64,000 bases of DNA from Mobula hypostoma (Eukaryota), in the NCBI RefSeq assembly GCF_963921235.1, contig NC_086097.1, positions 57,414,001 to 57,478,000 of the forward strand, given 5' to 3'. Shown one piece after another: positions 17,829 to 63,900 of this stretch. Numbering within the stretch: position 1 is the stretch's first letter; each line of letters starts with the position of its first letter. A model generated the notes under the pieces. It did not search any database and was not told the origin of the DNA. It saw nothing but the letters and a program-made list of their open reading frames with translations. The position numbers and the translations under genes were made by a program.

Positions 17829-17997
17829 ACACAAACACGAGGAAATCAGCAGATGCTGGAAATTCATGCAACACACACAAAAAATGCTGGTGAACGCAGC
17901 AGGCCAGGCAGCATCTGTAGGAAGAGGTACAGTCGACGTTTTGGGCCGAGACCCTTCGTCAGGACTAGCTGAAAGAAGAGTTAGTAAGAGATTTGAG
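17829..17997 (-). mobile_element. Penelope terminal-repeat-derived unit with mutated hammerhead motif
   Basis: Inverted homologue of 46037-46208; minus strand reads agtcCTGACGAagggtctcggcccAAAAcgtcgactg (GAAA changed to AAAA). Confidence 0.8.
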
Positions 17998-29019: not shown

Positions 29020-30500
29020 AATCAGAATCAGATTTAATATCACCGGCATATGTATGGCCTGAAACGTCGACTGTACTTTTTTCCATAGATGCTGCCTAGC
29101 CTGCTGAGTTCCTCCAGCATTTTGTGTGTGCTGCTCAGAGTTTCAGCATCTGCAGATTTTCTTTTGTAGTGAAATATGTTGTTTTGCATCCATAGTTCAT
29201 TGCAATACACAAAAAGCTATAAATTACCATACAAAATATACATATAAAACTGTATACTGTATAAATTAAACAAGTAGCGCAGAAAGGAGTAAAATAGTGA
29301 GTCAGCGTACAGGAAGGGAAGGAAGCTGTTCTGAAATGTTGTGTGTGTGTCTTCACGTTCCTGTAACACTTTCTTGATGGTAGCTATGAGAAGAGGGTAT
29401 GCCCTCGGTGACGGGGGTCCTTAATGATGAATGCTGCCTTTTTGATTGAAGCATCACCTGTTGAAGATATCCTTGATGATGGGGAGGCTAGTACCCATGA
29501 TGGAGCCGTCTGAGTTTGAAGCTTCTGCAGCTTTTTCCGATCCTGTGCAGTGGCTCCTCCATACCAGATGGTGACGCAAGCAGTTTAGAATGCTCTCCAC
29601 AGTACATCTGTAGTAATTTGCGAGAGTCTTTGGTGACGTACCAAGTCTTCTCAAACTCTTAACGAAATATAGCCGCTCTCATGCCTTCTTTGTAATTGCA
29701 TCAATATGTTGGGACCAGGATAGATCTTCAGAGACATTGGCAGCCAGGAACTTGAAATTGCTCACCCTTTCCACTGCTGATCCCTTGCTGAGGACTGGTA
29801 TGTGTTTCCTTGATTTCTCCTTTTTGAAGTCCACAATCAGTTCCTTGGTCTTACTGACATTCAGTGCAAGGTTGTTGTTGCAACATCACTCAACCATCTG
29901 ATCTATCTCATTCCTGTACGTCTCCTCATCGAGATCTGTTATTCTGCCAGTAATAGTTGTGTTGTCACCAGATTTATAGATGCTGTTTGAGCTGTGTCTA
30001 GAGGTGTCGAGGAGTGGGCTGAGCATGCATCCTTGAGTGTGCCAGTGTTGATTGTCAGCGAGGAGGAGATGTTATTTCTGATCTGCATTGATAGTGGTCT
30101 CCTAAAGAGGAAATCAAGGATCTAGTTGCAGAGAGAGGTACAGAGGCCCATGTTTTGGAGAGTGTTGATTAATACTGAGGGTATGATGGTATTGAACTTG
30201 AACTGTATCCAATAAACAACAGCCTGATGTAAGTATTGCTATCATGCAGGTGATTCAAGACTGGTTGGAGAGCCAGTGAGATCGCATCAGCTGTGGACTT
30301 ATTACGCCAATAGGCAAATTGCAGCAGGTCCAGGTCCTTCCTTATTCTGGTTATTCTGGTCTTGAGATGGGTACCTCAGACTGCTGCAGTGAGAGATGGA
30401 GATGTCCTTGAACACTCGCCAGTTGGCTGGCACAAGTTTTCAGTGCCTTACCAGGTACACCATCATGACTTGATGCCTTATGAGGCTTCGCCCTCATGAC
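29020..30500 (-). mobile_element. Rex1/Babar-like LINE, decayed
   Basis: Tail aatcagaatcag; SPKTLANYYRCTVESIL; PHKAS..DGVPGKALKTCASQLA. Confidence 0.8.
29054..29165 (+). mobile_element. Truncated Penelope terminal fragment inserted in the LINE tail
   Basis: ggcctGAAAcgtcgactg...gatgctgcctagcctgctgagttcctccagcatttt...cagcatctgcagatttt; the CUGANGA half is missing. Confidence 0.75.
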
Positions 30501-32689: not shown

Positions 32690-34460
32690 AAGCAATTTGG
32701 GAGGCATAGGATAGGTACATCGAAAACATGAATTATTGTAAAAGGAGCACAAGACAACTGTGGCTTACAAGGGAAGTCAAAGACAGCATAAAAGGAAAAG
32801 AGAGGGCATATAATATAGCAAAAATTAGTGGGAAGTCAGAAGATTTGGATGCTTTTAAAAACCAGCTAAAGAAACCATAAGGAGAGAAATGATGAAATGC
32901 AGGTAAGCTAGCCAATAATATAAGAGAGTATATCAAAAGTAAAAGAGAGGCGAAAGTGGATATCAGCCTGCTGGAGAATGATGCTGGAGAGGTAGTAATG
33001 GGGGTCAAAGAAACAGCAGATGAATTGAATAAGTACGTTTGTATTTTGCATTGGTCTTCACTGTGTAAGACACTAGCAATATGCCAGAAATTTGAATGTG
33101 ACAAGGGGCAGAAGTGAGTGCAGTTGCTAAGGAGAAGTTCTTGGGAAGCTGAAAGGTAGATATTTCACCTGGACCAGATGGACTGCACCCCAGGGTTTTC
33201 AAAGATGTAGCTGAAGAGAATGTGGAGGGATTAGTAATGATCTTCCAAGAATCACTAGATTCTGGAATGGTTCTGGAGAACAAGAAAATTGCAAATGCCA
33301 CTCCATTCTTTAAGAAGGGAGGGAAGCAGAAGAAAGGAAATTCTAAGCCACACTCATAACACGCTTTGAGGAACTCAGCAGGTCGGGCAGCATCCGTGGA
33401 AACGATCAGTCAACGTTTCAGGCCGGAACCCTTTGTCAGCACTGAAGATGGAAGGGGCAGAGGCCCTATAAAGAAGGTGGGGGGAGGGTGGGAAGGAGAA
33501 GGCTGATAGGTGCCGGGTGAAAACCAGTAAGGGGAAAGATAAAGGGGTGGGGGAGGAGAAGCAGGGAGGGGATAGCCAGGAAAGGTGAAGAAGGAATAGG
33601 GAAAAGCACAATGGGTAGTAGAAGGAGGTGGAACCATGAGGGACGTGATAGGCAGCTGGAGGAGGGGGCAGAGTGAAACGGATGGGGGATGGGAGGGGGA
33701 GGGAATTACCTATCTGCAGATTATTTTGTGTTTAAAATTCTAGGCCAGTTAGCCTAACTTCAGAGGTTAGGACAATGTTAGGGTCCATTATTAGGGATAA
33801 GGTTTCAGAGTACTTGGAAGCGTATGATAAAATAGGCCAAAGTCTCCATGGTTTCCATAAGGGGAAATCTTGCCTGGCAAATCTGTTGGAATGCTTCAAG
33901 GAAACAACAGGCAAGATAGACAAAGGAGAGTCAGTGGATGTTGTTTATCTGGATTTTCAGAAGGCCATTGACAAGGTGTCGCATCAGAAGGGGCTTAATA
34001 ATACAAGAGCCCATGGTGTTATCAGGGGGAATCTCATTGAAACCTATTGAATATTGAAATGTTGGGATAATTGGATGTGGGGTGGATGTTTCATATAGTG
34101 GGTTAGTCTAGGACCTGAGGACTCAACCTCAGAATAGAGAAACATCTATTTAGAGCAGAGATGCGGGGGAATTTCTTTAGCCAGAGGATAGTAAATCTGT
34201 GGAATCCATTGCCACAGGCAGCTGTGAAGGCCAAATCATTGAGAAGTTGTTAGGTTCCTGATTAGTCAGGGCATGAAAGGGTACGGGAAGAAGGCAGGCG
34301 AATGGGATTGGGAGGGATAATAAATCAGTCATGATGGAAAGTTAACTAATTGCATGACACATCCTGGTGATACTAAACCTGATTCTGAAATCAGCCATGA
34401 TGGAACAGTGGAGCAGACTTGCTGGTCTGAATGGACAAACGATGCTGCTTTATCTTATGA
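32690..34460 (+). mobile_element. Decayed CR1 LINE with internal deletion, interrupted by a PLE fragment
   Basis: PGPDGLHPRV, HGFHKGKSCLANLLE, YLDFQKAIDKV; tail gctgctttatcttatgacctt. Confidence 0.8.
33351..33734 (-). mobile_element. Penelope 3' fragment with short inverted tail
   Basis: TSD aaattctaagcca (33338-33350) / aaattctaggcca (33735-33747); mutated hammerhead at 33407-33444 (CTGACAA); purine-rich tract; inverted tail atctgcagattattttgtgtt. Confidence 0.8.
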
Positions 34461-38161: not shown

Positions 38162-38278
38162 GTATTGCCCAATGTGGATATTGATAGTCTTCCAAGTATT
38201 AGTCCAGAAAGAAGCCAGAGATCACCGAGCCCTGAGCAACAGCAGATGATGCAACAGACTGCACCAACTCTGAAACAG
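38162..38278 (+). CDS. KIAA0586: KIAA0586/TALPID3 internal coding exon (117 nt, phase 0 to 0)
   Basis: Not in the ORF track. Acceptor attgtcttcag, donor CAG|gtacca. Encodes VLPNVDIDSLPSISPERSQRSPSPEQQQMMQQTAPTLKQ; VLP.VDIDS directly follows LTVQ in TALPID3. Confidence 0.9.
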
Positions 38279-38859
38279 GTACCATTATTGTTGTCAGTGT
38301 TTGTAAATGTTTTTCTTTCTGATTGAAGGCATACTCCATTTATAGTATAGCTTTGTTCAGAAATATTTCCTTAGAATGAATATTTGGATGGCATTCCACT
38401 TGAACTTCCCTCTTAACTAAGACATTAAGCAAAAGGACTGATATCAGAATAAATTGGCACTGGATGTAAAACATAAAAATTTAATTGAAGTCTTTCACAT
38501 CTTGATGAACAACATTTCTGTGGTCTGCTGGCCAAAACTACAAAACTAAGATATTATTTGAAGTTTTGTTTGCTTAATAGAGAGAGCAGTTACACTTGCT
38601 TGGAAACATACCCACTAATCAAATCTAGAGGATTTAGCTATAAGAACAAAGGCTTATGGCATTCATCCCACTGCATCAACTGTGTTTGAACAGATTAAAA
38701 TCATATGCATAGAAGAACATATAGTATACATTTTAAAACCATGGCTGGCAAAGATACTTAAACCAATAGGAAGAATCATCCAGTGATGGCTTCTGAACTA
38801 TGCTATATGGTTATTCACCAGTAATGCCCTGGAAACCTACAGATCTATCTGACTGTTAT

Positions 38860-39174: not shown

Positions 39175-42100
39175 CTGTGGCAGCTTTTTACTATGTTTGT
39201 CAGTGATTTGGACTATGGGATTATTAGATTTGTGGCTAAATTTGCTGATGATACAAAGATAGGTGATAGTGTTGAGGAAACAGAGAGCCTGCAGAGAGAC
39301 TTAGATAGTTTAGGGGAATGGGCAAAGAAGTGGCAAATGAAATACAATGTTGGAAAGTGTATGGTCATGCACTTCAGTGGAAGAAATAAACGGGCAGATT
39401 ATCATTTAAATGGGGAGAGAATTCAAAATACAGAGATGCAAAGGGACTTGGGAGTCCTTGTGCAGGATACCCTAAAGGTTAACCTCCAGGTTGAGTCAGT
39501 GGTGAAGAAAGCGAATGCAATGTTGGCATTCATTTCTAAGGGTATAGAATATAAGAGCAGGGATGTGATGTTGAGGCTCTATGAGGCACTCATGAGACCA
39601 CACTTGGAGTATTGTGTGCAGTTTTGGGGAAAAGGATGCAACCATGGTTGACAAGAGAAGTCAAAGCCAAAGCCAAAGTTAAAGCAAAGGAGAGGGCATA
39701 CAAGGAAGCAAAAATTAGTGGGAAGACAGAGGATTGGGAAGTTTTTAAAACCTTACAAAAGGAAACCAAGAAGGTTATTAAGAGAGAAAAGATTAACTAT
39801 GAAAGGAAGCTAGCAAATAATATCAAAGAGGATACTAAAAGCTTTTTCAAGTATATAAAGAGTAAAAGACAGGCGAGAGTAGATATAGGACCGATAGAAA
39901 ATGATGCTGGAGAAATTGTAATGGGAGATAAGGAGATGGCAGAGGAACTGAATGAGTATTTTGCATCAGTCTTCACTGAGGAAGACATCAGCAGTATACT
40001 GGACACTCAAGGGTGGCAGGGAAGAGAAGTGTGCGCAGTCACAATTATGACAGAGAAAGTACTCAGGAAGCTGAATAGGCTAAAGGTAGATAAATTTCCT
40101 GGACCAGATGGAATGCACCCTCGTGTTCTGAAGGAAGTAGCTGTGGAGATTGCGGAGGCATTAGCGATGATCTTTCAAAAGTCGATAGATTCTGGCATGG
40201 TTCCGGAAGACTGGAAGATTGCAAATGTCACTCCACTATTTAAGAAGGGGGCAAGGAAGCAAAAAGGAAATTATAGACCTGTTAGCTTGACATCGGTGGT
40301 TGGGAAGTTGTTGGAGTCGATTGTCAAGGATGAGGTTACGGAGTACCTGGAGGCATATGACAAGATAGGCAGAACTCAGCATGGATTCCTTGAAGGAAAA
40401 TCCTGCCTGACAAACCTATTACAATTTTTTGAGGAAATTACCAGTAGGCTAGACAAGGGAGATGCAGTGGATGTTGTATATTTGGATTTTCAGAAGGCCT
40501 TTGACAAGGTGCCACACATGAGGCTACTTAACAAGATAAGAGCCCATGGAATTACGGGAAAGTTATATACATGGATAGAGCGTTGGCTGATTGGCAGGAA
40601 ACAGAGAGTGGGAATAAAGGGATCCTGTTCTGCTTGGCTGCCGGTTACCAGTGGTGTTCCACAGGGATCAGTGTTGGGGCCGCTTTTTACATTGTACATC
40701 AATGATTTGGATTATGGAATAGATGGCTTTGTGGCTAAGTTCGCTGACGATACGAAGATAGGTGGAGGGGCCAGTAGTGCTGAGGAAACGGAGAGTCTGC
40801 AGAGAGACTTGGATAGATTGGAAGAATGGGCAGAGAAGTGGCAAATGAAGTACAATGTTGGAAAGTGTATGGTTATGCACTTTGGCAGAAAAAATAAACG
40901 GGCAGACTATTATTTAAATGGGGAAAGACTTCAAAGTTCTAAGATGCAACAGGACTTGGGAGTCCTTGTACAGGATACCCTTAAAGTTAACCTCCAGGTT
41001 GAGTCAATAGTGAAGAAGGCGAATGCAATGTTGGCATTCATTTCTTGAGGAATAGAGTATAGGAGCAGGGATGTGATGTTGAGGCTTTATAAGGCACTGG
41101 TGAGACCTCACTTGGAGTACTGTGGGCAGTTTTGGTCTCCTTATTTGAGAAAGGATGTGCTGACGTTGGAGAGGATACAGAGAAGATTCACTAGAATGAT
41201 TCTGGGAATGAGAGGGTTAACATATGAGGAACGTTTGTCCGCTCTTGGACTGTATTCCTTGGAGTTTAGAAGAATGAGGGGAGACCTCAGAAACATTTCG
41301 AATGTTAAAAGGCATGGACAGAGTGGATGTGGCAAAGTTGTTTCCCATGATGGGGGAGTCTAGTACGAGAGGGCATAACTTAAGGATTGAAGGGCGCCCA
41401 TTCAGAACAGAAATGCGAAGAAATTTTTTTAGTTAGAGGGTGGTGAATCTATGGAATTTGTTGCCACGGGCAGCAGTGGAGGCCAAGTCATTGGGTGTAT
41501 TTAAGGCAGAGATTGATATGTATCTGAGTAGCCAGGGCATCAAAGGTTATGGTGAGAAGGCAGGGGAGTGGGACTAAATAGGAGAATGGATCAGCTCATG
41601 ATAAAATGGCGGAGCAGACTCGATGGGCCGAATGGCCAACTTCTGCTCCTTTGTCTTATGGTCTTATTTTAGAAAGGATATACTGACATTGGAGAGGGTT
41701 CAGAGAAGATTCATGAGAATGATTCCAGGAATGAAAGGGTTACTGTATGAGGAACATCTGGCAGCTCTTGACTGTATTCCCTGGAGTTCAGGAGAATCAG
41801 GGGGATCTCATAAAAACATTCCAAATGTTAAAAGGCCTGAACAGATTAGATATGGCAGTTATTTCCCATGGTAGGAGAGTTGAGGACAAGAAAGCACTAC
41901 TTCAGGATTGTAGGACGTCCATTTAGAACAGAGATGTGGAGAAATTACTTTAGTCAGAGGATGGTAAATCTGTGGAATTTGTTGCCATGACCGGTGGTGG
42001 AGGCCAAGTCATTGCGTGCATTTAAGGCAGAGATAGATAGATTCTTGATTAGTTAGGGCATCAAAGGGTATGGGGAGAAGGCAGGGGTGTGGGTATGACT

Positions 42101-43959: not shown

Positions 43960-44135
43960 AAGACGAGATTCTGCAGATGCTGGAAATCCAGAGCAGCATA
44001 CACAAAATGCTGGAGGAACTCAAACAAGTCAAGAAGCATCTTCATGAATCTTGGCCTGAAACATCAACTGTCTATTCCTCTTCATGGATGCTATTTGACC
44101 TGCTGAGTTCTTCCACCATTTTGTATGTATTATCC
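43960..44135. repeat. Fold-back Penelope terminal fragment
   Basis: Left arm cacaaaatgctggaggaactca...gtcaagaagcatc; right arm gatgctatttgacctgctgagttcttccaccattttgtatg; partial hammerhead ggcctGAAAcatcaactg between them. Confidence 0.7.
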
Positions 44136-46036: not shown

Positions 46037-46208
46037 AAATCCCTTACTCACTCTTCCTTCAGTTAGTCCTGACGAAGGGTCTCGGCCTGAAACGTCGACT
46101 GCGCCTCTTCCTATAGATGCTGCTTGGCCTGCTGCGTTCACCAGCAACTTTGATGTATGTTGCTTGAATTTCCAGCATCTGCAGAATTCCTGTTGTTTAC
46201 GTTTAAAA
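46037..46208 (+). mobile_element. ~170-bp Penelope terminal-repeat-derived insertion
   Basis: Flanked by 10-bp direct repeat ACACAGTAAA (46027-46036, 46209-46218); homologous end to end to 17829-17997. Confidence 0.85.
46065..46100 (+). ncRNA. Minimal type I hammerhead ribozyme motif, core intact
   Basis: AGUC-CUGACGA-AGGGUCUCGGCCU-GAAA-CGUC-GACU: stem I AGUC/GACU, conserved CUGANGA and GAAA, short stem II, loopless palindromic stem III (ACGU), predicted cleavage after GUC at 46096. Activity untested. Confidence 0.8.
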
Positions 46209-50300: not shown

Positions 50301-50516
50301 ATATTGTAAAAGTATAATATCAAATACATTGAATTACAGAAAATATCTAGAAGGGTAATTTTGTGTAAAATTACACTTCTATTTTGATGGCCATTGTCCT
50401 GGCACTGTCACTTGTAAACATCAATTCTGTTTCTGGCGACACTTGGCTAAAATTAAGGGTGATCATGGGGTTACTTAGGTAGTGCAGAAGAGAAAGTGTT
50501 GTGTAACTTAAGAGTA

Positions 50517-51998
50517 CAGGTTTCCCCTGCCATCCGAAGGTAGAGCATTCCTATGAAACGGTTCGTAAGCCAAAATGTGGTAAAGCGAAGAAGCAATTAC
50601 CATTTATTTATATGGGAAAATTTTGTGAGCATTTGCAGACCCAAAAATAACCTACCAAATCATGCCAAATAACACATAAAACCTAAAATAACAGTAACAT
50701 ATAGTAAAAGCAGGAATGATATGATAAATACACAGCCTATATAAAGTAGAAATACTTTTACAGTCATTACTGAACTGTTCTCGGTAGCGAAAATCTCGCG
50801 CACGTGCCATCGGTTGAAAATCTTACGCAAGCGCTGTTGGCAAAAACACGGTGCAAGCGCTCTCCAGTAACCTTTAAGCTATGAAGCTGCCAAATCATAC
50901 CAAACAACACGTAAAAATACACAGCCTATATAAAGTAGAAATAATGTATGTACAGTATAGTATCACTTACCGGAATTGGGAAGACAGCGCCGAGCACACT
51001 GATGGCGTGTTAGGCTGAGTTGTCGCAGGTTGGGGTGGTGCAGTGGCCCCCACCCTCCGGGCCGCCGACTGATACATTGCCGTGAAGCATGCAGGGATCC
51101 AGCGGTAGCCGGGAGGCACACAGCACATCTTTAAGAAAAAAGCCAAAACAAACATGCTAATTAATTAGGTGCCGCCCAGCACATAATTGCCGGCAGCACC
51201 TAATTAATTAGCATGTTTATTTCGGCTTTTTTCTTAAAGATGTGCTGTGTGCCTCCGGGCTAACGTTGCATTCTCCGCGAATCGGTATCTGTCCATGGCC
51301 TGGGGGTTGGGGTGGTGGGATACTGGGGTGTCATCTCGTCGTCTGTTTCCATTAGAGCAGGCAGCTCATCTTCTTCTATCTCTGCTCGCCTCGATGTCGA
51401 AGGTCGAGGTTCGCCGTCTGCTGTGGCTGATGTGGAAGGCTTGCTTGACTGCTGAGCCTTGCGCATTTTAGATCATACAGCTCTTTCTAAGGACTCAAAC
51501 CATCCTGCAAATATCCCTTAAACCGATGTACCCTTTCAAAATTAAAGTCGTACTTTATCATTACTCATTCGGTTTCGATTGTTATCCTTTTTTCTTCTAA
51601 TTGCATCAGCTCTTCATCTGTCAGTTCTTGGTCATGGGATGCCAAGACCTCTTTAACATCATCTTCGTCAGCTTCCACAAGCCAAACTCATTTTGTCCTT
51701 ACTTCATTCACCACGATCGAAACGCTTAATTATGTCTAGTTTTACGCTAAGTGTAACACCCTTACGAGCTCCTTTAGGCTTTTCCAATACCATAGAACTC
51801 ATCTTGCAAACGGCTGCTCACAGGCACGTGTTAAAGCAATGCAATTCCAAATCCAGGGGAGCGGCTGCTTGGGGCACGTGCTGATTTTTTTTCGTAACAG
51901 TGAAAACACTTTCTGAAAGCGAAAACAGGGTACTAATGTAGGTCTTTCGTAACAGTGAGGTTTCATAAAGCGAACGTTCAAAAAGCGGGGGACGCCTG
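50517..51998 (-). mobile_element. Tigger/pogo-like non-autonomous DNA transposon
   Basis: TA|CAGGTTTCCCC ... GGGGGACGCCTG|TA; remnants of the N-terminal HTH (KPK.ARKGVTLSVKLDIIKRF) and acidic C-terminus; internal palindrome. Confidence 0.85.
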
Positions 51999-52246
51999 TA
52001 CTGAATAAAGATATACTAACTATGAGCTTTGAGAGAATATTTATCATCCAAGCGGGAAAAGACCAATCAAAAGAATTCTACCTATGATTTTATTTACAGA
52101 AGGTTAGCTATGTGAGGGCATTTCACCATTGCACTACATTTGATGTTGTATAAGCCCTACTGGAACACTTGTTCAGTGTCCTTCATTCCTTGGCTCTAGG
52201 AACACCTGAAAAGCACAGCATATTTGCAAACTAGTTTCCTTTTCAT

Positions 52247-52768: not shown

Positions 52769-53734
52769 CTAGTTTCCTTTTCATAGTTTAAATTGCTAGT
52801 TAGTGGATGTAAAAGGTACAATGCACTTACCAAGAAAGTGATTTAATGAGATGAATAGATACACAAATCATATGTAAAGTCAGCTCTTAATTTTTCCAGA
52901 TAATTTTGTTCCATGTTAAAACAAAACACTGAGTATTTAATATTTGTTGTCTTTGCATTTTGCTGAGGCATTTTTTGAAAGTCCATTCTGATTTTCTAAA
53001 GCAATATTATCGTACTCTTAAAGTTTAACTTTTTTAGTAGATATTAATTGATTATACATTTATCAGACTGATAAGAAAAAGGCAGAGCAGATCAGTTAGT
53101 TTTAAAATTTAGGAGAAAATTGAAAAGCATTACTTGTTTCCATTTTGAATTCGTTGTTACCAGATTTAGTGTGTTTGATATTTGTTACGTTGCATTTTTG
53201 GCCTAAACATTTGTCTGGGAATCATATTGCATTATTGACAGTGTCTAGTTGTATATATATTTTCTGATTCTATTTCTATGATCACAGTACCTTCCCTGTA
53301 CTACACAAGTAACTGTTGCACACTCAAAGACACTTGATCTTTTCATTGCTGTGAAAGTAATGAAAGGATCTATTATCACAGGATTATAAAACATAGGAGT
53401 AGAATTAGGCCACTTGGCCCATTGGTCTGCTCTGCCATTCCATTATTACTGATTTATTACTCCTCCCAACTCCATTGTCCTGCTTTCTCCCATAAAGCTT
53501 GATGCCCTGACTAATCAGGAACCTATCAACCTCTACTTTAAATATACCCAATGACTTGACCTCTACAGCCAACTCTGCCAATGAATTCTTCGGATTCACC
53601 ACCCTCTGGCTAAAGAAATTACTCATCTGTTCGAAAGGGGTGTCCATCTATTCTGAGGCTGTGCCCTCTGGTCCTGGATTCACCCACTGTAGGAAACATC
53701 TTCTCCATGTCCACTGTATCTAGGCCTTTCAATA

Positions 53735-55346
53735 CAGGTTTCCTCCACCATCCGAAGGTAGAGCATTCCTATGAAACGGTTCGTAAGCTGGAATGTCGTA
53801 AAGCAAAGAAGCAATTACCATTTATTTATATGGGAAAAATTTGTGAGCGTTCACAGACCCAAAAATAACCTACCAAATAACACATAAAACCTAAAATAAT
53901 AGTAACATATAGTAAAAGCAGGAATGATATGATAAATACACAGCCTATATAAACTGGAAATACTTCTCTACAACGATTGCCTGCACTGTTCTCTGTAGCG
54001 AAAATCTCATGCAAGCGCTCTCGGCAGAAACACTCTCTCCAGTAACCTTTAAGCTATGAAGCTGCCAAATCATACCAAATAACATGTAAAAATACACAGC
54101 CTATATAAAGTAGAAATAATGTATGTACAGTGTAATATCACTTACAGAAATCGGGAAGACAGCATCGAGCACACTGATGGTGTGTTAGGCTGAGTCTCGG
54201 AGGCTGGGGTGGTGCAGTGGCGCCCACCCTCCGGGCAGCGAACCGATACTGATCCGTGAAGCATGCAGGGGTCCAGCAGTAGTCCAGCAGTAGCTAGGAC
54301 GCACCCAGCACATCTTTCAGAAAAAAGATGAAATAAACAAGCTAATTAATTAGGTGCCACCCGGCACGTACATGTCGGCCCAGATCACAGACAATTGCCG
54401 ATTGCGTCGCCTCTGATCTGGGCCAACATTTACATGCCAGGCGGCACCTAATTAATTAGCTTGTTTATTTCGGCTTTTTTCTTAAAGATGTGCTGGATGC
54501 CTCCCGGCTACCGCTGCATTCTCCGCAAATCGGTATCTGTCCGCGGCCCGGGGGTTGGGACCACTGGGTTGATGGGACACGTGTGTCATCTCATCGTCGA
54601 TCAGGGCAGGCAGGTCATCTTCTTCTATGTCTGCCTGCCTCGATGTCAAAGGTCGAGGTTCGTCGTCTGCTGTGGAAGGCTTGAAAAACGACATTATGCT
54701 TGACTGCTTAGCCTCACGCATTTTTCTATCATACAGTTCTTTGTAAGCACTCAAACCATCTTGCAAATATGCCCTAAACCAACGTACCCTTTCAAAATTA
54801 AAGTTGTACTTTATCATTGCAGTGAAAATCTCACGCAGTTGCTTCACGTTCAGTTCCTGGACGACTTCAGTTTCGGTCCGTTCGCTGCTGCATTCGGTTT
54901 TGATCGTTATCCTTTCCTCTTCCAATTGCATCAGCTCTTCATCTATCAGTTCTTGGCCATGGGATGCCAAAACCTCTCCAACATCATCTTCTTCAGCTTT
55001 CACAAGCCAAACTCACTTCGTCCTTACTTGGTTCACCACGATTGAAACGCTTAATTATGTCTAGTTTTACGCTGAGTGTAACACCCTTACGAGTTCTTTT
55101 AGGCTTTTCCGATACCTTAGGACTCATCTTGCAAACGGCTGCTCACAGGCACGCGTTTAAGCAATGCCGGCGAGAATGTCTTTCTGAATCCAGGGGAGTG
55201 CGGCTGCTCGGGGCGAGCTGCTTTTTTTCCACGCGCTACTTTATCTGCACGCTTTTTTCGTAACAGTGAAAACACCTTCTGTTAGTGAAAACAGGTAACT
55301 AATGTAGGTCTTTCGTAGCGAACGTTGGAAAAGCGGGGGACACCTG
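53735..55346 (-). mobile_element. Tigger/pogo-like non-autonomous DNA transposon (second copy)
   Basis: TA|CAGGTTTCC ... GGGGGACACCTG|TA, inserted at a TA in the CR1; MSPKVSEKPKRTRKGVTLSVKLDIIKRF joined to EEDDVGEVLASHGQELIDEELMQLE (TIGD/Tigger-like). Confidence 0.88.
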
Positions 55347-55533
55347 TATTTGATAGGTTTCAGTGAGACTCCCTCATTCTCCAGCAAATACAGGCCCAGA
55401 ACCATCAAGCTCTCCTCCTATGTTAACCCTTGCATTCCCAGAATCATTCTCATGTACCTCCTCTGGACCCTCTCCAAAACCAGCACATTTTTTCTTAGAA
55501 AAGCGGCCCAAACCTGCTCAAAATACTCTAAAT

Positions 55534-60913: not shown

Positions 60914-63900
60914 GTACCCCCCTCCCCCCAACCACAGACCCCTCCTGGCATCACTGCAGGTAGAGCTGGGTGCTGGCGATGAAAGTCCCTGATGAGAGAG
61001 GGGTCCAGGATGTTACAGGCAGGGAGCCAGCACCTCTCCTCAGGACCATAGCCCTCCCAATCCACAAGGTGCTGGAGGCCACAGCCCCAGCGATGAACAT
61101 CCAGCAGACGACACACCGTGATGGCCTCTGAATAATTGATAAGCCGTGGGGAAGTGGGGGGGTTGTAGAGAAAGGACACAGGTGGTGGCTCATGAAAGGC
61201 TTGAAGCGGGACACATGGAAGGTGGGACGAATGCTGCGGAGAGTGGACGGGAGCTTGAGACGGACGGTAGCAGGGCTGAAGACTTTAGCAATGGAAAGGG
61301 GCCAATGAAGCTGGGGAGGCGCGATCTTGCAGGAATCCACCTTGGGGGCAGGTCTTGGGTTGAAAGCCACACACGCTGTCCCTGGTGGTAACATGGAGTA
61401 TTGGAGCAATGGTGGTCAGCTTGATGCTTGATCCTAGCAGAGGCATGGAGAAGGGCAGAGCGAGTGTGCCTTCATGGCCGCTGACAACAGCGGATGAATG
61501 TCTCGGCAGATAGAATACCAACTTTCTCCTGGGCAGGAAACAGTTGAAGTTGGTAGCCAAGGCAGCACTCGAAGGGGAACAGACTGGTGGATGAAGACAG
61601 ATGAGAGTTTATGGGGTACTTGGCCCAGGGCAACTGCTGACTCCACGCAGAGGGGTTCTGGGAGACTAGACACCGCAAACTGTTTCTAGCTGTTGGTTGG
61701 CCTGCTCAGTCTGGCCATTGGTCTGTGGGTGGAATCCTGAAGACAGACTTACGGAGGCACCCAGAAGATTACAGAATGCCCTCTAGAAGTTGGATGTGAA
61801 TTGAGACCCCCGTCTGACATCTACAGGTAAACCATACAATTTAAAAACATGCAGTACTAGTAACTTGGCTGTTTCTTTGGCCAAGGGGAGTTTAGGTAAA
61901 GGAATGAATTGTACAGACTTGGAGAAACAATCAACTACTGTGGGAATGGTGGTGTTACCATCTGATGGGGTAAGACCGGTGACAAAATCTAGGGCCATGT
62001 GGGAGCAAGGTCTCTTGGGGATAGACAGGGGTTGTAACAGACCAGCAGGCAACCAGTTAGAGTTCTTACCTCGAGCACAGACCGAGCAGGCTGAGACGAA
62101 GTTGTGGATGTCGTCTCCCATGGAGGGCCACCTGAACCGCCGATTGATGAAGGCCTGAGTATGCTTGGTTCCAGGGTGACAGGATAACCGGGAAGGATGA
62201 CCCCACTGCAATACCTGTGAGCGGACAGAGCTGGGAACATGAACACAGTTAGTGGGTCATTGACTCAGGGCTGCCTCACTCTGTTGAGCAGCTTACACAA
62301 TGGATTCAGTGTCCCATCACGCTGTACCCATGAGACAGTGAGCTGGGAGGATGACATCGGGAGAGGGCATCAGGTTTTCCATTCTTGGAATTGGGGCAGA
62401 AGGACAGAGTAAAATTGAATCTTGAGAAAAACAGAGACCAACGAGCTTGATGGGAGTTGAGACTCTTGGCAGTACTGATATATTCCAGATTCTGGTCATC
62501 AGTCCAGACTAAGAATGGCATTTTGGCTCCCTCCAGACAATGCCTCCACTCCTCCAGAACTAGCTTCACAGCCAGCAGCTCCCAGTTTTGGACACCATAA
62601 TTCCTCTCCGTGGGGTGTGAGGCGGTGAGAGAAGGCAGCGCAGGGGTGTACCTTCTCATCCTTGGCCAAGCACTGAGAGAGAACAGCTGCTATGCCAATG
62701 TCAAATACATCCAACTCCACAATGAACTGCTGGTCGGTGTCGAGTTGAATCAGAATTGGGGCAGAGGTGAAACGTTCCTTCAGGTCAGAGAATGCTTTTT
62801 CTGCAGCAGGGGACCAGGAGAATCTGACAGCAGATGAGGCAAGAGCAGTGAGTGGTACAGTCAGTGTACTGTAATTTCTGATGAAGTGGCAATAGAAATT
62901 AGCAAAGCCCAGGAAGTGTTGAAACTCCCGACGAGTCGAAGGTTGAGGGCCATTCGACCACTGCCTTGACCTTCTATTGATCCATCTGAATGGAACCGCC
63001 TGAAATTACATACCCGAGGAAGGAGACTGTATTGTGATGAAACTCACGTCTCTCAGCCTTCACAAAGAGCTGGTTCTCCAGAAGGCACTAGAGAACTCTG
63101 CGGACGTGACCTGTGTGTTCAGCAAGGGACTTAGAAAAAAAAATATCAAAATGTCGTTGAGATACACAAAAACAAATTGGTTCAGCATGTCCCTGAGATC
63201 GTCATTTACCAGGGCTTGGAAGACGGCAGGGGCATTGGTGAGACCGAATGGCATGACCAGATACTCATAATGGCCTGAGGTGCTGTTGAAGACTGTCTTC
63301 CACCCATCCCCTTCGCAGATGCGACCAAGATGGTATGCATTACGGAGATCAAACTTGATGAAAACTGAAGCTCCTTGCAGTAGGTCGGATGCAGAGGTCA
63401 TGAGCGGAAGAGGGTAACGGTTCTTAACAGCGACTTCATTCAGTCCCCGGTAATCAATGCATGGATGTAAGGACCCGTCCTTCTTTTCAACAAGGAAAAA
63501 ATTGGCACCAGCAGGGGAGGAAGTCAGCCGGATGAAGCCTGCAGCCAGAGGCTCGTTCATGGCTTCAGTTTCAGGTACGGACAGGGAATACAGGCAGCCC
63601 CCCCCCACCCACCCACCCACCCCACCAAGGGAGATGTGCCAGGCAAGAGGTCAATGGCACAATCATATGGATGACGAGGTGGCAGGGAAGTGGCCCAGGA
63701 CTTGCTGAACACAGCCTTGAGGTCCACGTATTCAGGAGAGATGGCACTAACGTCTGGAAATTCCTCGGGGGGATCTGGGCTTGGAGACAAAGAGATCTGA
63801 GCATGGTGGAGGCAGTGGGAATGACAGAATGGACTCTAGCCTACAATCTTGCGACTGAGCCAGTCAATGTGGAGGTTGTGTTTAACTAACTAGGGATGGC

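Follow-up and report, generated by a model that had tools for sequence, protein, structure and literature searches.

A hammerhead motif in a TALPID3 intron of the ray Mobula hypostoma belongs to a truncated Penelope-like insertion and is likely to be an inert passenger

The complete hammerhead motif found in an intron of the TALPID3 gene of Mobula hypostoma is best explained as the minimal hammerhead of a high-copy Penelope-like 3′ terminal repeat, brought in as a truncated insertion of 172 bp and now likely to be an inert intronic passenger that is spliced out uncut; we put the probability of this reading at roughly 0.9. All positions given below are those of the window, that is, the whole stretch of 64,000 nucleotides that was analysed. 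The initial annotation of this DNA had overlooked that the motif sits inside this 172-bp insertion and that the repeat concerned is very abundant.

The structural description given in that annotation, an intact minimal hammerhead with a full core, a 4-bp stem I, a short stem II and a loopless palindromic stem III, agrees with the window letter for letter, and its assignment of the motif to the Penelope-type minimal type I class is supported as well. Read from the window sequence, the plus-strand motif at 46065-46100 is a complete minimal type I hammerhead with the core CUGANGA / GAAA / NUH, a helix I within the 4-5 bp range and a palindrome at 15.2-16.2 (Table 1); a lone copy cannot form helix III by itself. 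At 10.1-11.1 the motif has G-U, and the G10.1-C11.1 pair that is usual in minimal hammerheads, though not strictly defining of them, is absent. The same G-U was seen in 48 of 61 young copies of the family, with C in 38 of 57 older copies, and the extra A (A46076) is retained in 59 of the 61 young copies. A T at 11.1 (46088) characterizes the most amplified and youngest subfamily, which accounts for 32,886 or more of the 50,271 matches in the genome, and the loss of the usual G-C pair there may reflect a relaxed catalytic constraint. The hammerhead family was absent among the eight matches (E ≤ 5) of an Rfam scan of the window, a result which is uninformative for a motif so small.

Table 1. Coordinates of the motif, its insertion and related features in the window.
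Feature	Position	Strand	Basis or remark
TALPID3 exon upstream of host intron	38162-38278	+	about residues 894-932 of closest named TALPID3; in spliced-looking RNA contigs
5′-truncated insertion of Penelope-like 3′ terminal repeat and tail, 172 bp	46037-46208	+	repeat identity, target-site duplication, absence in relative
Target-site duplication, left copy, 10 bp, ACACAGTAAA	46027-46036	+	perfect; single copy at empty site
Target-site duplication, right copy, 10 bp, ACACAGTAAA	46209-46218	+	perfect; single copy at empty site
Stem I strands, AGTC / GACT	46065-68 / 46097-100	+	4 bp; sequence
Core CTGACGA (CUGACGA)	46069-75	+	sequence
Extra A between positions 9 and 10.1	46076	+	sequence
Stem II	46077-88	+	4 pairs; sequence
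AGGGTCTCGGCCT, letters between CTGACGA and GAAA	46076-88	+	sequence
GAAA	46089-92	+	sequence
CGTC	46093-96	+	sequence
Palindrome ACGU, helix III without loop	46092-95	+	sequence
Predicted scissile bond	after C46096	+	sequence
Older, more truncated copy of related subfamily	29056-29167	+	78% identity; 3′ hammerhead half only; intron two exons upstream
Antisense copy of same family, broken core (G12 to A)	17833-17994	-	sequence match
Older antisense copy, broken core	33336-33447	-	sequence match
Older inverted pair of truncated copies in host intron	43968-44130		sense arm 44049-44130 without catalytic half, palindrome broken

The insertion is a single copy between its target-site duplications, not a tandem, and is 98.8% identical over 172 bp to the nearest of the copies compared (L144). 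Contigs from a DNA run of the same organism enter the element from both flanks, so the insertion is not an artefact of assembly. In a relative which is about 2% divergent (organism B), the site is empty and 46026 is joined directly to 46209; the contig concerned (X5, record 17) aligns from 45300 and shows 29 differences over some 1,420 letters of flank, and the bridge is that of one contig from one study. In two further species (organisms C and E), the match of the flank contigs breaks off at these same borders; this is compatible with an empty site, although the contigs do not bridge it. The empty site in the relative thus indicates that the insertion is young, or at least unfixed among close relatives.

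The repeat to which the insertion belongs is very large. The exact 36-letter motif occurs 32,886 times in the 3.48-Gb genome (16,386 forward and 16,500 reverse) and reversed control patterns gave no genomic matches, hence the motif is not a product of chance; a 31-nt pattern with two free positions gave 50,271 genomic matches, evenly on both strands. In the first 30 loci listed, the downstream end is fixed and the upstream ends vary, and members of the family extend upstream to variable lengths, directly into a frame encoding reverse transcriptase (RT) and a GIY-YIG endonuclease. The parent frame (locus L032:2018-4054) is of 679 codons with RVT_1 (E 2.5e-5) followed by a C-terminal GIY-YIG domain (E 6e-4), both matches lying below the Pfam curated cut-offs, and the motif-bearing sequence lies about 300 nt past its stop codon, within the terminal repeat at the 3′ end of this Penelope-like retrotransposon. 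The copy at 46037-46208 is itself too truncated to carry this frame. Between the RT and endonuclease domains, the frames of L031, L032 and L033 share a CX4CX2C linker (CKRNKCYTC), and this linker motif alone points to a family of the Neptune type. Of 88 young copies, 36 have their 3′ end at 46159-68 and 43 at 46195-200, which makes two clusters separated by about 35 nt, and inverted, 5′-truncated neighbouring copies are found at L031 and L032; an optional tail of 30-40 bp, or two preferred 3′ ends, is a signature of Penelope-like elements (PMC8557442; PMC11167929), and both the end clusters and the inverted truncated neighbours match this published anatomy. No complete unit flanked by two terminal repeats turned up in 1.9 Mb of sequence, the longest copies being 5′-truncated, and same-strand pairs 2-3 kb apart are separate short insertions and not full-length units.

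The exon map bears out that the motif lies within a TALPID3 intron, in sense orientation and downstream of exon 38162-38278. The Pfam TALPID3 model gave 10 matches around the window, all on the plus strand; the window exon was closest, among four protein matches, to TALPID3 of Mobula birostris (97%), and the M. birostris protein mapped on the genome with 27 matches across 507 kb. The host intron, 67.6 kb long and with GT-AG borders, begins at 38279 and ends outside the window, at about 105883; the motif lies 7.8 kb into it. The next TALPID3 exon begins at about window position 105884 and 12 further exon matches lie downstream of the motif; the initial annotation had allowed for a gene that ends before the motif, and as these matches continue downstream, TALPID3 evidently runs on past it. 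Exon 38162-38278 alone was matched by one piece in three of four presumed-RNA contig sets from the same species. In two of those sets the record extends about 2.1-2.2 kb downstream of the exon, which is compatible with the 1,965 coding bases that remain, and this onward stretch would represent the downstream TALPID3 exons. The unique flanks of the insertion had no cover in the four presumed-RNA contig sets, and contigs cannot show RNA ends, so this lack of cover has no bearing on cleavage.

The window contains a number of other mobile elements. A 487-codon open stretch of a CR1-like LINE, identified by eye, occupies 39585-41045 (+), and several further LINE fragments fill the host intron. Broken frames at 60954-63650 (-) resemble by eye what we take to be the polymerase and integrase region of a Ty3/gypsy-type retrotransposon. 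Long, near-perfect inverted repeats at 51097-51271 and 54285-54516 lie in two related 1.5-kb elements (50515-52000 and 53733-55348), and the Rfam microRNA matches within them, which fall below the gathering score, are likely to reflect hairpins.

The family was also counted by strand within genes. TALPID3 (507 kb) and MAD1L1 (1.0 Mb) together hold 200 family matches, 101 sense and 99 antisense, and the split is even in each of four age bins. Complete motifs in the two genes numbered 28 sense versus 11 antisense (p 0.009, uncorrected), with 21 intact sense-strand motifs in MAD1L1, and a replicate fixed beforehand (in FTO, 210 kb, and in a further 138.5 kb of MAD1L1) yielded three sense versus four antisense, too few to settle the sense excess, yet not supporting it. 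Pooled over 1.86 Mb of the three genes, there were 31 sense versus 15 antisense intact motifs (p 0.026, uncorrected); the p values are uncorrected since overlapping motif definitions were tried (core 47:32, full 31:15, exact 26:14), and the counts leave aside TRAPPC9 (one exon only) and NBAS/Sec39 (none), for which there was no usable gene span. No depletion of intact motifs on the sense strand was found over the 1.86 Mb of TALPID3, MAD1L1 and FTO, and the pattern runs counter to what harmful cutting would be expected to produce, namely a shortage of sense copies. The sense excess of complete motifs, which is not predicted by neutrality, is unexplained and may be due to chance. After insertion the core decays freely, like CpGs outside it: among 57 older copies, 25 of 50 scorable cases retain the CpG of the core palindrome and 27 of 54 a non-core loop CpG, and 12 of 65 copies which are below 88% identity and reach the core still keep it. 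Across older subfamilies the commonest letter is unchanged at every core position and flanking positions vary, a constancy which suggests selection on the transposing master copies.

The approximately 170 bp around the motif match five other places in the window, on both strands (Table 1). One of these, the antisense copy at 17833-17994, lies just 56 bp past a TALPID3 exon whose last position is 17777. The partner in cis put forward in the initial annotation, a half motif at 29056-29073, is indeed present, but it cannot be a partner able to cut 46096. It lies 17 kb and two exons upstream, in another intron, and in the geometry of a double hammerhead the partner has to supply the CUGANGA strand, stem II and GAAA in order to cut a given site (PMC4209133); as CUGANGA is missing from the 29056 copy, it cannot cut at 46096. 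Judged from its letters, this copy could only serve as a substrate, cut after 29068, such that the proposed roles in cis would be reversed. Three more sense cores are found 27-32 kb downstream in the host intron, two of which are complete (at window positions of about 75365 and 77817, or 29 and 32 kb downstream), and that at about 75365 adjoins an inverted copy. The 6.1 kb of host intron at window-relative 73147-79248 (57487147-57493248) contain six short hammerhead-bearing fragments, three per strand, with one pair inverted back to back.

The capacity of the motif to cut was considered with folding models, which leave out tertiary contacts and are weak evidence. The monomer is predicted to be an inactive rod of about -10 kcal/mol each in which the core is sequestered; the pairing probability of stems I and II is <0.01 in contexts of 172 and 700 nt, and the value of 0.24-0.37 in one 350-nt context counts against inertness. 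With two copies, the double hammerhead reached -9.5 kcal/mol versus -28.3 for the best co-fold, a gap of about 19 kcal/mol. Cleavage by single minimal hammerheads is reported as undetectable and by dimers as low (PMC4209133), and the Anolis Poseidon hammerhead cuts only with the protein of the element, is dispensable for insertion in vitro and has no RNA-seq reads ending at its site (PMC11167929). Identical motifs are abundant in RNA-type runs, so partners exist. Just one of the 88 young copies has its 5′ end at the cleavage site, and cut RNA is thus rarely the template. Among young copies truncated inside the query, 17 of 49 start in the 5-nt interval 46065-46069, where the hammerhead begins, a cluster which is possibly a reverse-transcription stall at a structure, alignment ends being imprecise. 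Contigs in all four DNA runs contain a joint from 46099 back 35 nt to 46065, which suggests that head-to-tail dimers of the bare motif exist somewhere in these genomes; such dimers would be the best natural dimer candidates.

Three other explanations have to be weighed against an inert passenger. The motif might occasionally be cut off-target, in trans by another of the many copies or, in tissues where the element is active, with the help of the Penelope protein; such cutting would have no selected role and would change TALPID3 mRNA little if at all. The core is complete, related dimers and protein-assisted forms cut in vitro (PMC4209133; PMC11167929), sequence of the element is abundant in RNA-type runs, and complete sense motifs at about 75365 and 77817 lie within the same intron; however, the predicted folds (double hammerhead -9.5 kcal/mol, best co-fold -28.3, rod of each monomer -10), the G-U in place of the conserved G10.1-C11.1, the single young copy in 88 that starts at the cut site and the Anolis case, where no reads ended at the site (PMC11167929), all make such cutting unlikely. 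A wider version, in which bursts of Penelope activity provide an RNA partner or protein cofactor and nick many host pre-mRNAs, including that of TALPID3, via a shared pool of tens of thousands of identical intronic sense hammerheads, is in our opinion highly unlikely; if true, it would be a genome-wide, transposon-triggered side effect and not a gene-specific switch.

A gene-specific switch is what the initial annotation envisaged, with cleavage dependent on copy number: pairing with a second transcript, or with the half motif at 29056, would cut the TALPID3 pre-mRNA and tune its output. Absence of the insertion from the relative that is about 2% divergent largely refutes this idea, which is extremely improbable and unsupported on several other counts, although the motif is intact and sense-oriented in a real intron and a role in mRNA biogenesis has been proposed for intronic hammerheads conserved in amniote genes (PMC6155905). 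The insertion is of recent date and sense copies are tolerated; among 32,886 identical motifs this one is indistinguishable from the 32,885 others, hence pairing could not report the copy number of TALPID3; the 29056 copy is without the catalytic half and in another intron; the intermolecular pairs are only eight, in two short helices; and spliced-looking transcripts of the same species span the upstream exon and about 2.1-2.2 kb onward. The chance that the copy is instead a non-autonomous retrozyme, a tandem hammerhead repeat spreading via small circular RNA and not a truncated Penelope end, is practically negligible. Short hammerhead-bearing copies do predominate, the 35-nt-back read joints suggest some head-to-tail dimers elsewhere, and an origin of animal retrozymes from the terminal repeats of Penelope has been proposed (bioRxiv 10.64898/2026.07.22.740005), but the copy at 46037-46208 is single where at least two tandem units would be expected, its relatives run upstream at variable lengths into the RT-GIY-YIG frame, 5′ ends do not fall at the cleavage site, and the motif is minimal, not canonical. 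Domestication as an intronic hammerhead of the RECK type was also considered and rejected: the orthologous position is empty in organism B and therefore not conserved, the motif has no helix III loop and is predicted to form neither a stable helix III nor a canonical fold active as a monomer, and the predicted fold sequesters the core.

The inert passenger reading would entail the following history. Target-primed reverse transcription would have started in the tail of the element and stopped after about 170 nt, giving the insertion. Selection on transposing master copies would be all that keeps the motif intact, and its activity in those copies is likely to be weak, occurring in tandem transcripts or with the assistance of the protein which the element encodes. 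In the intron, the single copy would cut rarely or never because it has no helix III alone, is expected from the folding models to adopt a wrong structure and is no nearer than 29 kb to a sense partner, and the core at 46065-46100 would be expected to be lost by CpG decay, as in older copies. The locus itself is thus of little weight, being one recent transposon fragment among tens of thousands. The family, on the other hand, is well suited to a clean test of in vivo cleavage by minimal hammerheads of Penelope, since at least 32,886 identical motifs would sum to a strong RNA-end signal and one ray species has the insertion while a close relative does not.

One literature search for such motifs in cartilaginous fishes came back empty, although some may be listed in supplementary material, and cartilaginous fish are unnamed in the available text of PMC4209133. 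By its letters, the ray motif has the tested sequence features of the Penelope minimal hammerheads described in 2014 except for the G-U at 10.1-11.1. With the minimal hammerheads in the terminal repeats (pLTRs) of metazoan Penelope-like elements (Cervera and De la Pena, 2014; PMC4209133) it shares the type I core, the 4-bp helix I, the extra base 9/10.1, the palindromic 15.2-16.2 without loop 3, the location in a terminal repeat and the occurrence mostly as solo truncated copies. It departs from them in having G-U in place of G10.1-C11.1 and, compared with those of Schistosoma, in a stem II of four pairs against 7-8 bp, whilst the copy number, at least 50,271 near-exact matches, is higher than the 4,000 reported for coelacanth and the 9,000 for Xenopus (PMC4209133). 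The Neptune-type EN+ elements (Craig et al., 2021; PMC8557442) likewise have RT followed by a C-terminal GIY-YIG, a CX2-5CxxC linker, 5′ truncation, inverted adjacent copies, an optional tail of 30-40 bp and a terminal-repeat hammerhead; for the ray family, placement in this clade is by the linker only and no full-length copy with two repeats was seen in 1.9 Mb. The Anolis Poseidon element PAc (Frangieh et al., 2024; PMC11167929) shares a terminal-repeat hammerhead, two preferred 3′ ends giving the tail and an AT-rich target, but belongs to another clade, Poseidon being without the zinc-finger linker, and the dependence on protein was shown for PAc.

More distant comparisons can be made with hammerheads outside Penelope-like elements. 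The intronic hammerheads of amniotes (RECK and C10orf118; PMC6155905, PMC10761166) are also of type I and on the sense strand of a host intron; however, they have the canonical form, cut as monomers and have been conserved in birds and mammals alike, whereas the ray motif is minimal, one of tens of thousands and missing in a close relative. Animal non-LTR retrozymes carry type I hammerheads, those of vertebrates being better as dimers, and a common ancestry of retrozymes and Penelope terminal repeats has been proposed (PMC7229834; bioRxiv 10.64898/2026.07.22.740005). Retrozymes are tandem arrays of 170-400-nt units, in contrast to the ray copy, which is the single truncated end of a coding element.
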